Positions 36,616-41,087 of a stretch of 64,000 bases of DNA are shown in pieces. The translations under genes and the position numbers were made by a program. The stretch's first letter is position 1. Every line of letters starts with the position of its first letter. This DNA comes from Promethearchaeota archaeon (GTDB lineage: Archaea; Asgardarchaeota; Lokiarchaeia; Sigyniarchaeales; SOKP01): positions 1-64,000 of the forward strand of contig JAEOTS010000157.1 of the NCBI GenBank assembly GCA_016839745.1, given 5' to 3'. Below the pieces are notes generated by a model. The model was not told the DNA's origin. It saw nothing but the letters and a program-made list of their open reading frames with translations, and ran no database searches.

Positions 36616-36648
36616 TTGTTAGAAAAGTGCACCTTAAAGCTTTATAAA
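36616..36648 (+). promoter_or_regulatory. Shared promoter element, copy 1 (GAAAAGTGCACCTTAAA-N2-TTTATAAA)
   Basis: 17-mer identical to 37927-37943 and 39170-39186, followed by a TATA box. Confidence 0.85.
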
Positions 36649-36702
36649 CATTTTCTCTTAGTCATCATTATATGGTTATAATACCATAGAGATGAGATTA
36701 TT

Positions 36703-37839
36703 ATGAAGCCAAAAATTTTAGTTGTCTTTTATCCCCTAATCCTGTTTATATTTATTTATCCTACAAGCTACAGCGTTGCTGCAGAAAGTAATACTGAATA
36801 CTTAATCCTGGAACAAGTTAGTCAGATAAATACAGGGGAAGGTACATTTTATGTGGAAATAAAAGAAAACATCGCATATGTTTCTGACTTGACTTATAGA
36901 GGATTAAAGGTTATCAATGTTAGCAATCCTTCAGAGCCAGAAATAATAAGCCAATATAGGGATAATAGTTCTTTTGAGATCCCTCACATATTCTATATCC
37001 AGGGGGATATTTTATTTCTAGGAGATCATACTGATGGATTAGAAATTTACAACATTAGCGATCCTGCACATCTTCAAAAAATAGGTGATTGGTGGATTGA
37101 AGGTGTTACTGATGATGTTATTGTTGTAGATGATATTGCTTACACTGTAAGTTGGGATGAAGGGTTAAGAATAGTCAATGTTAGTGATTTTTCAAGTCCA
37201 TCTTTAATAGCTACTTATATTACTGAAAATAAAACTTACCCGCGCGTTCATCTAATAAAAGATTATATCTACATTTATGAAATAGGATTAACGGGCTCAA
37301 AAATGAAAATTATTAATATAAGTAATCCCAATACCCCTACAAGAGTGGGAGAGTATATGTGTGAAGCATTAGCTATTGATATAATTGGCGATATAGCTTA
37401 TATTGCAGCTGGGGTTCAGGGGTTTATCACTCTTAACATTAGTGATCCGTTAAAACCTACCGAGTTAGGGCATTATGAGCCTGGAGGAATAATAGGAGGA
37501 GTAGATATAGAGGGAGATCTAGCTTTCATTACAGATGGAGATCAAAGAAGGTTAATCGTACTCAATATAAGTGACCCTACAAAACCTACATTCCTTCAGC
37601 AATGTGGCAACTTCCATACTGCTTTTGATGTTTGTGTATTCGATAATTATGCCTACCTAGCTGATTTTCAAGAGGGTCTTAGAATCATACAAATTTGGGG
37701 AGATCAGCAGGATGATAATCAAAAAGATAAACCAATAGTAATAGGGTATGATAATGCTCTTGGAATTTTATTCCTAATGATGTTTACCTGTGGGATGATA
37801 ATTATCGTTTTCAATAAAAACAAAAACCGAAATGATTAA
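36703..37839 (+). CDS. LVIVD-repeat (beta-propeller) cell-surface protein with signal peptide and C-terminal TM anchor
   Basis: Repeats AYV....GLxIxNISxPxxP; C-terminal IGYD + hydrophobic helix + basic tail. Confidence 0.85.
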   Translation: MKPKILVVFYPLILFIFIYPTSYSVAAESNTEYLILEQVSQINTGEGTFYVEIKENIAYVSDLTYRGLKVINVSNPSEPEIISQYRDNSSFEIPHIFYIQGDILFLGDHTDGLEIYNISDPAHLQKIGDWWIEGVTDDVIVVDDIAYTVSWDEGLRIVNVSDFSSPSLIATYITENKTYPRVHLIKDYIYIYEIGLTGSKMKIINISNPNTPTRVGEYMCEALAIDIIGDIAYIAAGVQGFITLNISDPLKPTELGHYEPGGIIGGVDIEGDLAFITDGDQRRLIVLNISDPTKPTFLQQCGNFHTAFDVCVFDNYAYLADFQEGLRIIQIWGDQQDDNQKDKPIVIGYDNALGILFLMMFTCGMIIIVFNKNKNRND

Positions 37840-37920
37840 TCATTAGTTGAAATGTAGAAATTCATAATCTTACACTTTTTTTTATTCAAACTTTCTCTAT
37901 TGCTTTTGTTATTCTCTTTA

Positions 37921-37953
37921 TTGTTCGAAAAGTGCACCTTAAACCTTTATAAA
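37921..37953 (+). promoter_or_regulatory. Shared promoter element, copy 2
   Basis: TTGTTCGAAAAGTGCACCTTAAACCTTTATAAA. Confidence 0.85.
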
Positions 37954-38024
37954 TAAAATAATTTCTTATTTTTTAAGTAATCTTTCAAAAATTAAAATAA
38001 GCACTCAAAGATAAGTAAAGAAAA

Positions 38025-39125
38025 ATGAGTTCAAAGAAACCTTGCTTAAAGAAATTTCTCTTTATAATTATAGTATTTTTTATGGTTTTATCAAACGGTT
38101 ATAAAGTATATGCTGATTTAAATATATATCCACAAAAGATCGGACAATTTGATACTGTATTCGCCTGGGATGTTGTTCTAATCGATGATATAGCCTATGT
38201 TGGGGGAAATGAAGAGGGGTTACAAATTATTGATGTTTCTGATCCTCGAAATCCAACCGAGTTGGGTCACCTTGACCTCGGAGTAACTCACAGTATCGAT
38301 GTTCTCAATGGAGTCGCTTATTTAGCGAATTATTTTAGTGGTTTGCATATAGTCAATATATCAAATCCATTAAATCCTACAAAGATAAGTGATTTCTATG
38401 ATGGAGGACACGTTTCTGATGTTGTTACTGCTGGGGATCTCGTTTATTTATTGAGTTTGGAAAATGGACTAGAAATTATTAATTGTAGCAATATTAGACA
38501 TCCGGTTAAGATTGGTGAATATAATGATGGAGGAACTCCAAACAGGGTTTTTATTAATGAGGATTTAGCGTATATAGCAGATTATCATGCGGGGCTTGAA
38601 ATAATCAACATTTCAGATCCGTTCAATCCTTTCGAAATCGGAGGATACTTTAATGGGGAGGGAGCGTATAGTGTTAAGGTCGTAGAGAATATTGCTTATC
38701 TGAGTTACAGTTCAAAAGGTTTAGAGATCTTGGATGTGAGCGATCCATTCCATCCGATCACTTTAGGATCATTCAATAATGGAGGTAACGTATACTTTTC
38801 ATTCATTTTAGATGATCTAGCTTTCCTATCAGACGATAATGATGGGCTTGAAATCGTTAATATAAGTGATCCCTCTAATCCTTGGAAGATAAGCGGATTT
38901 AATGATGGAGGACACACAAGAAATCTCTTTATTGATAATAATTTAGTGTTTTTAACTGATTTAGATGATGGATTAGAAATAATCGAATTTACAAATGCAC
39001 CTCCACCTCAAAATCCTAATTTACCTCCACCTCAAAATCCAAATTTCATAATCCCGGTTATTATCATAGTTATTACTACAGGTTTAGTCACATTGATTAT
39101 TATTATATATAAATATAAAAAATAG
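38025..39125 (+). CDS. LVIVD-repeat cell-surface protein with signal peptide and C-terminal TM anchor
   Basis: About 7 repeats of AYL....GLEIINISDPxNP; Pro-rich linker; TM helix + KYKK. Confidence 0.88.
   Translation: MSSKKPCLKKFLFIIIVFFMVLSNGYKVYADLNIYPQKIGQFDTVFAWDVVLIDDIAYVGGNEEGLQIIDVSDPRNPTELGHLDLGVTHSIDVLNGVAYLANYFSGLHIVNISNPLNPTKISDFYDGGHVSDVVTAGDLVYLLSLENGLEIINCSNIRHPVKIGEYNDGGTPNRVFINEDLAYIADYHAGLEIINISDPFNPFEIGGYFNGEGAYSVKVVENIAYLSYSSKGLEILDVSDPFHPITLGSFNNGGNVYFSFILDDLAFLSDDNDGLEIVNISDPSNPWKISGFNDGGHTRNLFIDNNLVFLTDLDDGLEIIEFTNAPPPQNPNLPPPQNPNFIIPVIIIVITTGLVTLIIIIYKYKK
39000..39047 (+). repeat. 24-nt tandem duplication encoding PPPQNPN(L/F) twice
   Basis: cctccacctcaaaatcctaattta / cctccacctcaaaatccaaatttc. 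Confidence 0.9.
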
Positions 39126-39163
39126 AATAATTATATATTACTTAATGTAACTAGCCACAGCTT

Positions 39164-39196
39164 TTGTTCGAAAAGTGCACCTTAAACCTTTATAAA
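39164..39196 (+). promoter_or_regulatory. Shared promoter element, copy 3
   Basis: TTGTTCGAAAAGTGCACCTTAAACCTTTATAAA, identical to copy 2. Confidence 0.85.
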
Positions 39197-39249
39197 TAAA
39201 ATTGTTTCTTATTTTATAAGTAAAATTTGTGTTTTGAAGGTTTTTATGA

Positions 39250-39843
39250 ATGTGTCTAAAAAGAAATGAAATCAAAATTAAATTAAGCTCGATTCTAACT
39301 AGCATCTCCTCTCTATTAATTTTGTTTCTGCAATATGTCCCTTGTACTGCAATATGGTTTGGTATAATGAGCGTTCCATTAATATCGTATTTAGTATGGT
39401 TTTTTCAAGACCCTAACATTCTATTATGCGACTTGAGATTCTTAATCGGGGCCCAAGGATTCTATGTTGTCTTATTCGGATTAATGTTATACATATACAG
39501 TTTGATCTATCAATTATCACACAGAGGGCGACTAATTACAAAAGGTCCATATAGGATAATAAGACATCCCCAATATCTAGCCTTTATTATTATGACATTA
39601 GGGATGACAATAGTGGCATTTCAGACATCCCCAATTTTTGAATTCCCAGTTTCCTATGAAAATCGATTTAACATTTTATTTATAATTTGGATAGGTGAAG
39701 TAGTAGCTTACATTTTATTGGGGAAGATCGAAGAATTTGCATTAAAAGCTAAATATGGAGATGAATTTCTAGAGTATAAAAATAGAGTAGCTTTTATTAT
39801 TCCATTCTTAAAAATACAAGGTAACAAAATAAATAAAGCGTAA
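39250..39843 (+). CDS. Isoprenylcysteine carboxylmethyltransferase/PEMT-family membrane protein
   Basis: LITKGPYRIIRHPQYL, EE..L..KYGDEF.EYK..V..IIP. Confidence 0.85.
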   Translation: MCLKRNEIKIKLSSILTSISSLLILFLQYVPCTAIWFGIMSVPLISYLVWFFQDPNILLCDLRFLIGAQGFYVVLFGLMLYIYSLIYQLSHRGRLITKGPYRIIRHPQYLAFIIMTLGMTIVAFQTSPIFEFPVSYENRFNILFIIWIGEVVAYILLGKIEEFALKAKYGDEFLEYKNRVAFIIPFLKIQGNKINKA

Positions 39844-40584
39844 TTGATAAAAAGACCAAAAATGTCGAATATCATTATACAATCAAGAAAGTTCAGACGG
39901 AATTTCATAATTAAATTAATTCTTTTTATTTTTTCTCTTGTTCTCCTATCAGGAATATCGTTCTGGATAATCAAATTGTATGAAGAAGATGTATTCGATC
40001 TTGATATAAAAGCGCTTAGGTCATTTTTAACATATCTATTAATACCAACTATTGCTTTTGTATTAACACTCACAGCTCTTTCAATACAAGAATATAGAGA
40101 CTATTTTATTCGACGGAGCTATATTAATGAAGGGAGATCCTATCTAACTCTCGCGGATATATTCCAAAACGAAAATCGTTTAAATATCCTAAGACAAATC
40201 CTTAATAATCCTGGAATTCATCACAATGAACTCCTCCGAAGCTGTGATTTGAAAAAAGGTCAATTGCAATGGCATATAGATACATTATTAAAGTATAGCA
40301 TTATTAAAAAGGAAATATACGGACAATACACAATTTATTTTCCTGTCACATCATCAGCAGAAGCAATCGAAGCCTTTAAAAATCAATTTACTAAATCAAA
40401 AACTACTCTAGAAATATTGAACATAATTAGGAAAAGGCCTGGAATTAATTCTGCCGAGATTTCCCGCATTCTAAATCGTTCTCGTAATTCGATCAAATAT
40501 CATATTGATAAATTGGTTGAAAAACACCTAATAAGGTTAGAGAAGAAAGGGCGTAACATCGAATTATATCTATTATATCCATAA
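39844..40584 (+). CDS. Membrane-anchored tandem winged-helix transcription regulator
   Basis: Two N-terminal TM helices, then NENRLNIL..I..NPGIHHNEL....GQLQWHI..L and a second wHTH PGINSAEISRIL..SRNSIKYHI. Confidence 0.85.
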   Translation: MIKRPKMSNIIIQSRKFRRNFIIKLILFIFSLVLLSGISFWIIKLYEEDVFDLDIKALRSFLTYLLIPTIAFVLTLTALSIQEYRDYFIRRSYINEGRSYLTLADIFQNENRLNILRQILNNPGIHHNELLRSCDLKKGQLQWHIDTLLKYSIIKKEIYGQYTIYFPVTSSAEAIEAFKNQFTKSKTTLEILNIIRKRPGINSAEISRILNRSRNSIKYHIDKLVEKHLIRLEKKGRNIELYLLYP

Positions 40585-40736
40585 GAGAATCCAGTAAAAA
40601 ACGAAGGAAGAGAATTTCATCATTACAACTTTAGTAAAATTAATTTGATAATTGAGTTATTATTACATATTAAATTTAAATAAAAAGAAATTTAATTTAC
40701 AATAGTAATAAAATCGTTGAATTGGTGATATCTAAA

Positions 40737-41087
40737 ATGGCAGATTTAGAAAAATCAAAAAAAATATTTGGAATTATATGGATTCCTATTTTAATATTTT
40801 TATGGATTGCTTTTCCTTTCTTTCCGGGAGACATCTTCTTTTGGATGTGGCTGGCTATAATTTGGAGTATAATCGGCGGAGTAATAGGCACGATATTTTT
40901 CATGAGCGAGAGTAAAAGAAATGAAAAACTAATTGGGACTATTTGGGCAGTTATATTAGTGATTTTATGGGTTTTTTACCCGTACTTCCCTGGTGATGTA
41001 TTGGCTTGGATGTTGACTGCGATAATTTGGAGCATCATCGGCTGTGTCTTAGCTATAAGCCTATTTTTTCTCAAAAGAAAGAAATAA
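40737..41087 (+). CDS. Small 4-TM membrane protein made of two homologous halves
   Basis: GIIW..ILIFLW..FPFFPGD...W...AIIWSIIG repeated as GTIW..ILVILW..YPYFPGD...W...AIIWSIIG; SD GGTGA. Confidence 0.75.
   Translation: MADLEKSKKIFGIIWIPILIFLWIAFPFFPGDIFFWMWLAIIWSIIGGVIGTIFFMSESKRNEKLIGTIWAVILVILWVFYPYFPGDVLAWMLTAIIWSIIGCVLAISLFFLKRKK

Follow-up and report, generated by a model that had tools for sequence, protein, structure and literature searches.

Here, we describe a promoter block that occurs three times within a 64,000-nucleotide stretch of DNA from a Promethearchaeota archaeon of the class Lokiarchaeia (GenBank assembly GCA_016839745.1, contig JAEOTS010000157.1), hereafter called the window, as well as the genes behind this block and the membrane-anchored regulator that probably binds it. 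The three promoters precede two genes for LVIVD-repeat surface proteins and an operon encoding an ICMT-like polytopic membrane methyltransferase together with a predicted transmembrane transcription regulator (Table 1). An original prediction, made from the letters of the window, had read these genes as two LVIVD proteins with a transmembrane (TM) anchor, an ICMT/PEMT-like protein, and a double winged-helix protein with two TM segments, and profile searches confirm these calls. The two LVIVD proteins match the repeat family PF08309 with E values of 2e-31 and 2e-35 (107.3 and 120.1 bits; cutoff 20.2), and 3-4 stretches score separately, which places them in this repeat family. They are 30% identical to each other, and their TM anchors lie at the C-terminus, with basic residues after them.

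Table 1. Promoters, predicted transcription starts, and genes of the three transcription units in the window
Feature	Position	Strand	Remarks
Promoter 1	36616..36648	+	TTGTT(A/C) from 36616; TGTT 36617-36620; 17-mer 36622-36638; TATA 36641-36648
Predicted transcription start, unit 1	about 36670	+	inferred from conserved T-A-A
LVIVD-repeat surface protein 1, 378 aa	36703..37839	+	signal-like N-terminus, C-terminal TM anchor; PF08309
Promoter 2	37921..37953	+	TTGTT(A/C) from 37921; 17-mer 37927-37943; TATA 37946-37953
Predicted transcription start, unit 2	about 37975	+	inferred from conserved T-A-A
LVIVD-repeat surface protein 2, 366 aa	38025..39125	+	signal-like N-terminus, C-terminal TM anchor; PF08309
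Promoter 3	39164..39196	+	TTGTT(A/C) from 39164; 17-mer 39170-39186; TATA 39189-39196; block also present at the orthologous position of about 50 genomes
Predicted transcription start, methyltransferase-regulator operon	about 39218	+	inferred from conserved T-A-A
ICMT/PEMT-like polytopic membrane methyltransferase, 197 aa	39250..39843	+	PF04140, sequence motifs
Transmembrane transcription regulator (predicted), 240 aa	39862..40584	+	two TM helices, two winged-helix domains

The reading of the window and a pattern search agree on the same exact 17-mer, GAAAAGTGCACCTTAAA, in front of each unit, preceded by TTGTT(A/C) and followed after two nucleotides (GC, CC, and CC at promoters 1, 2, and 3, respectively) by the TATA box TTTATAAA. 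The invariant 17-mer, its lead, and the fixed gap to the TATA box had all been claimed before, and each of them holds. In a pattern control on the window, 0 of 100 shuffles yielded at least four matches at three or fewer mismatches. A genome-wide motif scan, which the original prediction had proposed, was run on the window's assembly (3.53 Mb in 192 contigs, 32% G+C, 89% complete), where the three sites turned out to be the only copies of the 17-mer at up to two mismatches. A weight matrix trained solely on sites from other genomes gives 38.9, 42.5, and 41.4 bits to promoters 1, 2, and 3, respectively; the runner-up in the assembly reaches 15.5 bits and has no TATA box behind it. Promoter 2 resembles promoter 3 along some 65 nt, untranslated leader included, so a recent copying event has come on top of selection.

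The anatomy of the site was derived from 61 distinct instances, selected on the 16-nt core alone and numbered from the first A of AAAAG. TGTT at -6 to -3, which lies outside the selected core, is present in 59-61 of the 61 instances, C at +17 in 55, and TTT at +18 to +20 in 59-61; upstream of -10 each position holds less than 0.4 bit. The same block is found in 45 methyltransferase-upstream regions picked by protein homology alone, with column identities of 80-99% as against 20-50% upstream. In all, the conserved block measures about 24 bp and runs without a gap into a strongly conserved, near-consensus TATA box. Every site has one and the same orientation relative to its gene, and the median distance to the start codon is 79 nt. 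Some 26 nt past the TATA centre, T-A-A is found at +46 to +48 in 45-52 of the instances, and it is this conserved triplet, at the distance expected of a start, that gives the predicted transcription starts of Table 1. A genome-wide compilation upstream of TTTAWAWA boxes revealed no signal of the B recognition element (BRE) in this AT-rich genome, and the upstream regions of tRNA genes, only 11 in number, gave no consensus.

Diverged promoters of orthologous operons keep T at -4 and G, A, C, and C at +6, +8, +9, and +10, and only seldom depart from G at -5 or T at -3. AAAGTG is lost in them, as is the TTAAA of the BRE position, and one such promoter (locus L026) reads GTTC-N7-GAAC. Since these promoters retain GTT and G-N-ACC and lose AAAGTG, a two-part pseudo-dyad, GTT(C)-N7-G-N-AC(C) with its centres 11 bp apart, is more likely to be the recognition unit than the palindrome of the original prediction (GTGCAC, within AAAGTGCACCTT). 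The latter was rejected, also given that the C at +10, which breaks the proposed palindrome, is invariant. An asymmetric two-part site on one face of the helix would fit a single chain with two unlike winged helices.

Such a chain is encoded at the end of the third unit. The regulator begins 18 nt after the methyltransferase gene, at the ATG at 39862, which orthologues conserve; the TTG at 39844 listed before is not conserved and has been replaced as the start. The protein consists of a basic N-terminus on the inner side, a TM segment (residues 19-37), an acidic outer loop of 15 residues, a second TM segment (55-73), a basic juxtamembrane stretch, and two winged helices, and both hydrophobic segments follow the positive-inside pattern. 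With matches to PF24266 (63.5 bits, cutoff 31) and PF13412 (60.6 bits, cutoff 21.9), it combines a DNA-binding domain and a TM region in one chain, which is the sequence definition of a transmembrane transcription regulator (TTR). An AlphaFold2 model (mean predicted local distance difference test score of 78) has two long N-terminal helices and agrees with the elements derived from sequence, but its predicted template modelling score of 0.34 does not fix the relative orientation of the domains. The predicted soluble DNA-binding part comprises about 165 residues. Among 29 orthologues both recognition helices are nearly invariant and the TM part is variable.

A fold search with the regulator returned generic tandem winged-helix proteins only (ScpB, cullin, RPC34, PF0095, and ArsR/SmtB, with TM-scores of 0.2-0.3), and a sequence search against the PDB gave 5duk as its sole match and no informative homologue. 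Profiles show weak similarity to the SdpR autorepressor, ArsR, and penicillinase-repressor families, and no functional study of HVO_0163, the namesake of PF24266, was found in the searchable literature. On the other hand, a paralogous family of 415-440 residues with the same tandem winged helices (35-40% identity) occurs in every genome of the order. The original prediction had pictured the regulator as a one-component sensor of the envelope; with an outer loop of only about 15 residues, the protein itself has no envelope-sensing domain. We further note that a 64%-identical orthologue is encoded on a contig (L084, DATKTW010000023.1) whose record is titled 'Candidatus Nanopelagicaceae bacterium', and this contig is probably mis-binned or mislabelled.

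The DNA of the locus occurs in marine-sediment metagenomes, and many genomes of the genus carry the exact 17-mer some 80 nt before the orthologous methyltransferase-regulator operon. The site is kept there even where the regulator is only 45-50% identical. An order-wide survey of 154 genomes, in which a copy with at most one mismatch was counted as the motif, finds it in three genera of one family, namely in 22 of 41 genomes of g1, 5 of 5 of g12, and 45 of 54 of g22; outside these genera it is sporadic, at the level of a reversed-pattern control. The methyltransferase orthologue is present in 32 of 41, 4 of 5, and 42 of 54 genomes of the same genera, respectively, and in only two genomes of the other 21 genera (one each in g21 and g23). 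Motif and operon occur together in 63 genomes, the motif alone in 19, the operon alone in 18, and neither in 54, a descriptive count among kin that are not independent. The co-occurrence of motif and regulator, which the original prediction had put up for testing, thus takes the form of a match by genus and largely by genome. Comparing motif and gene coordinates, about 50 genomes hold a copy with at most one mismatch at a distance of 60-120 nt in front of the methyltransferase gene. Operon, motif, and LVIVD2 orthologues are missing together from two 100% complete genomes (G016 and G057) of the window's own genus.

The methyltransferase that precedes the regulator passes PF04140 (34.1 bits, cutoff 24) and stays below the NCBIfam equivalog for protein-S-isoprenylcysteine O-methyltransferase (28.3, cutoff 160), so by these profile scores it is a member of the ICMT superfamily and not an orthologue of that enzyme. 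It carries RHPQY and EEFALKAKYGDEFLEY (EE...YGDEFLEY), which conform to the cofactor-site pattern RHPxY plus EE...(F/Y)G...Y and align to the motifs of the Methanosarcina acetivorans ICMT structure 4A2N, although the overall alignment is weak (E 0.53). No CaaX-ending proteins, the substrates of such enzymes, are found among the targets examined. In two genomes (G121 and G098) a second copy of the methyltransferase is fused to both winged helices, yielding proteins of 430-431 residues in which the TM hairpin is replaced. These fusion proteins (L059:1697-2989 and L069:2372-3667, both on the minus strand) each stand behind a separate, unfused methyltransferase copy with the same operator. ICMT fused to DNA-binding domains is not described in searchable papers. 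As the regulator is without a sensor domain, its input would most simply come from the ICMT-like protein, and the earlier suggestion of a link between regulator and co-encoded methyltransferase gains support from these natural fusions.

To see what else stands behind the site in relatives, we tallied 89 distinct motif-bearing promoters from fetched loci; these loci were picked by motif or homology, and the tally is thus descriptive and not a sample. Methyltransferase(-regulator) operons make up 40 of the 89, LVIVD proteins 17, and a radical-SAM/SPASM cassette another 17. Seven promoters precede proteins of 510-535 residues with a signal segment and a C-terminal anchor, one of which carries SBBP propeller repeats, and eight precede small polytopic membrane proteins and unknowns. 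A weak HExxH match was seen in one target of 525 residues. The radical-SAM/SPASM enzyme is closest to peptide maturases, below curated cutoffs, and is accompanied by one or two single-pass proteins of 82-120 residues with a conserved C-terminal tail and by a 448-residue methyltransferase-domain protein. The cassette has the look of a system that modifies small membrane-anchored proteins. It was seen at L036:1681-4410 (plus strand), as well as at L048, L047, L057, L066, L068, L074, L075, L090, and L104, and the tail shared by its small proteins reads YP-G-T-LYS-VK-KDF. The cassette can be continuous with the methyltransferase-regulator genes under one operator (L093 and L099). The genome of the window holds the three units only and no orthologue of the radical-SAM cassette (best match 33% identity). 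The idea of a surface beta-propeller regulon therefore stands insofar as propeller genes lie behind the site in many genomes; the regulon is nonetheless wider than was thought and includes the radical-SAM cassette.

The two LVIVD proteins themselves have close counterparts elsewhere. LVIVD protein 1 has an 89%-identical orthologue in another genus (L094), behind the same operator and continuous in one operon with methyltransferase and regulator, and orthologues of LVIVD protein 2, 74-85% identical, lie downstream of the operator in 15 fetched promoters. Between genera (the window compared with L056, L059, L093, and L094) the LVIVD proteins are 74-89% identical, whereas the regulator (45-60%) and the methyltransferase (about 60%) at the same loci are far more diverged, which is unusual for surface proteins. 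This similarity suggests that they are strongly constrained or have been exchanged between genera.

A few further observations concern the surroundings of the module and single copies of the site. G002 and G008 (L016 and L017) have a degenerate site at the regulator's own operon, and in G002 the exact operator is kept at the radical-SAM cassette (L039), which suggests that the strength of autoregulation may vary while the control of targets is kept. At L060:1388 (plus strand) an exact operator with its TATA box is followed by more than 600 nt in which that strand has no open reading frame of at least 25 residues. This copy could be an orphan, or it could drive a non-coding RNA. Two genes resembling the D component of 2-hydroxyglutaryl-CoA dehydratase (383 and 429 residues), preceded by an open reading frame of 124-162 residues, recur beside the module, being located behind an operator copy in L092:2370-4849 (plus strand) and L101 and downstream of the regulator in L069 and L071. 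With this pair, a set that otherwise concerns the envelope would gain a metabolic member. In the window, just downstream of the regulator (40722-41087, plus strand), lies an open reading frame of 121 residues whose Acyl_transf_3 match is restricted to profile positions 160-258 of 326, and which may be a gene fragment or have a mis-called start.

Judging from these comparisons, the block is probably bound by the 240-residue regulator and serves as operator for a small regulon that is specific to one family of Loki-type Asgard archaea. That the regulator is the binder we consider probable in its own right because of its autoregulatory position, its shared distribution with the site, their joint loss, and its invariant helices, which match an invariant site. 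In the proposed mechanism, the N-terminal hairpin of two helices would hold the regulator in the cytoplasmic membrane with its two non-identical winged helices facing the cytoplasm, where they would read GTT (-5 to -3) and G-N-ACC (+6 to +10), about one helical turn apart. From a site directly upstream of BRE and TATA at three promoters, the regulator would act on its own operon and on the surface-protein genes next to it, and in relatives also on SBBP propellers, small membrane proteins, and the radical-SAM/SPASM cassette. The co-transcribed ICMT-like enzyme would be its functional partner, probably as an input or sensor module.

Several points weigh against this reading. The genomes are related and not independent, so a two-by-two statistic of motif and operon overstates their association. 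Three genomes (G145, 92% complete; G137, 95%; G106, 79%) have motif promoters with no regulator orthologue detected, and hold only a paralogue of 420 residues or nothing; an assembly gap may explain these exceptions, or another binder may. The 3' part of the block, TTAAA-S-C, sits at the BRE position and may be read by TFB, and it is not separable here from the operator. Lastly, no covariation was found between operator variants and recognition helices: the regulators of G002 and G008 are 61-69% identical with unchanged recognition helices and have the degenerate site TTGTTAGATAACTGTACCTCATT at their own operon (L016 and L017), and N-to-S changes in helix 2 occur alongside an exact site.

Part of this evidence can be turned into a different account, in which the operator is real but is bound by another, probably soluble transcription factor, the methyltransferase-regulator operon being merely the most constant member of the regulon. 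The promoters without a detected regulator orthologue and the missing covariation would follow from it, and the tandem winged-helix paralogues of 415-440 residues offer a candidate in every genome of the order. Yet these paralogues are order-wide, whereas the motif is restricted to the three operon-bearing genera; in about 50 genomes the site stands before the operon of the regulator itself, a classic mark of autoregulation; operon, motif, and targets have been lost together in G016 and G057; and the three exceptional genomes are draft bins. We thus regard another binder as unlikely. That the block would be an extended core promoter, read by a specialised TFB/TBP paralogue in the manner of a sigma factor, is very improbable. 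Its fixed 2-nt fusion to the TATA box and its single orientation speak for such a role, but TFB reads about 6-7 bp upstream of TATA, so that a conserved block of 24 bp is longer than its footprint, and no TFB or TBP gene is linked to the loci examined. Least probable of all is that the repeat is neutral, left over from gene conversion or promoter duplication in a tandem cluster, with no dedicated factor. The extended likeness of promoters 2 and 3, leader included, is what such an origin would leave behind, as are two copies in one genome (G019) that are nearly identical through +40. The block is nevertheless exact in dozens of genomes and three genera, before at least four unrelated kinds of gene, while the flanks are saturated and the LVIVD paralogues so dissimilar; the divergent coding sequences also argue against recent horizontal copies of one element. 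Neutral duplication, which the original prediction had named as what would undo it, is thus contradicted by a block that has sharp edges and unconserved flanks in three genera.

Returning to the preferred binder, the membrane-anchored regulator, the sign of its action is harder to read. The fixed 2-nt gap to TTTATAAA and the T-A-A at +46 to +48 allow the site to be compared with the position of archaeal activator sites, bearing in mind that the start is a predicted one and that BRE and operator are not separable here. The most specific predicted contacts then fall at about -52 to -38 from the predicted start, upstream of BRE, which is where archaeal activators such as Ptr2, TFB-RF1, and EarA bind. 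Activation, by recruiting TFB/TBP from about -53 to -37, is for that matter slightly favoured over repression by occlusion of BRE. An alternative that differs in sign only is an autorepressor that lies beside or over BRE and blocks TFB/TBP until a membrane signal arrives via the ICMT-like partner. Activator-dependent archaeal promoters often have weak core elements, whereas the TATA box that joins the block here is strongly conserved and close to consensus, and the weak profile similarity to SdpR, ArsR, and penicillinase-repressor families points the same way. The logic would resemble that of SdpR/SdpI in Bacillus subtilis or of BlaI/BlaR1, in which a polytopic membrane protein that relays an envelope signal shares an autoregulated operon with a small winged-helix regulator. 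Against it, the contacts lie where activators bind, and the diverged promoters keep GTT and G-N-ACC and not the bases at the BRE position. We therefore consider such an autorepressor possible, though somewhat doubtful.

A more far-reaching scenario joins the cassette to the regulator. The radical-SAM/SPASM enzyme and the 448-residue methyltransferase would modify the small anchored proteins, and their product or another cue would be sensed in the membrane by the ICMT-like enzyme as input to the regulator, switching on its own operon, the cassette, and the propeller adhesins. Although we hold this to be quite improbable, it would, if true, amount to a positive-feedback, quorum-like or contact-like programme and to the first ICMT-fold enzyme that acts as the sensor of a transcription factor.

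Among known systems, ArnR and ArnR1 of Sulfolobus acidocaldarius, membrane-bound one-component activators whose boxes lie at -43 to -84, come to mind (PMC6396743). As with ArnR, we are dealing with an archaeal DNA-binding protein with two TM helices that is linked to cell-surface genes via cis elements upstream of BRE, the link being a predicted one here. The architectures differ, as ArnR has a single N-terminal helix-turn-helix, a HAMP-like and a sensor part, and C-terminal TM helices, whereas the present protein has an N-terminal TM hairpin, two unlike winged helices, and no sensor. The ArnR boxes are inverted repeats (TCGAC-N5-GTCGA), two of which are needed; here, one asymmetric site abuts BRE. 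With 17.9 bits against the NCBIfam ArnR model NF041016 (cutoff 400), a reversed domain order, and no HAMP or sensor part, the regulator does not belong to the ArnR family. TTRs in general are widespread, having been reported in 367 of 404 archaeal species with about four per genome (Demey et al. 2023, PMC10269533); the words 'Asgard' and 'Lokiarchae' are absent from the main text of that paper. Like TTRs and like ToxR, CadC, and TcpP, the regulator combines a DNA-binding domain with predicted TM segments and would act on DNA from the membrane. ToxR and CadC, however, have an OmpR-type winged helix, one TM helix, and a periplasmic sensor, in place of which we find a 15-residue outer loop and an ICMT-like partner or fusion. 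The regulator can be viewed as a variant of the known TTR class represented by ArnR and ToxR, with an architecture that we did not find described for TTRs.

The pairing of a winged-helix regulator with a polytopic membrane protein in one operon is shared with SdpR/SdpI and BlaI/BlaR1. The regulators of those systems are soluble and are sequestered or cleaved, whereas the one described here is membrane-embedded and no protease domain is present. The partner, in turn, resembles the ICMT family (Ste14 and the M. acetivorans ICMT) in being polytopic and in its RHPxY and EE...FG/YG...Y motifs, and differs from it in that no prenyl-cysteine substrate is evident and no CaaX-ending target exists among those examined. 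ICMT-like proteins have been seen in a regulated setting before, namely CzcN/NccN of Cupriavidus, which lie inside an envelope-stress (metal-resistance) cluster without an assigned role (PMC7563307). The original prediction had sought its analogy among eukaryotic membrane-bound factors, and the regulator is indeed TM-tethered like SREBP, ATF6, and plant NAC-TM proteins. These require proteolytic release and nuclear import, whereas here DNA and membrane share one compartment; no protease genes were seen at the loci examined, and no cleavage site or site-2 protease is linked to them. The likeness is one of logic only, and the nearest analogues are the prokaryotic transmembrane regulators ArnR and ToxR/CadC. 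In searchable papers we found neither a regulon nor an operator for any transmembrane regulator of an Asgard archaeon, nor any Asgard pair of factor and operator. We also found no account there of the features seen here, namely an N-terminal hairpin, unlike winged helices in one chain, one asymmetric site next to BRE, and a partner of the ICMT fold that is sometimes fused.

In short, the sequence by itself yields a candidate binder, a candidate operator about 24 bp long, and a small set of targets, and each of these is open to in vitro tests that need no culture. This makes for a credible gene switch in Loki-type Asgard archaea, a group in which almost none are known. The recurring pairing of the ICMT-like protein with the regulator, and their occasional fusion, hints at what such proteins may do in prokaryotes, where they generally lack an assigned function. 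With anchored beta-propeller proteins and a peptide-modifying cassette as its targets, the switch would act on cell-surface genes, in organisms that are believed to live close to their partners, and it may thus govern the surface presentation of these archaea.

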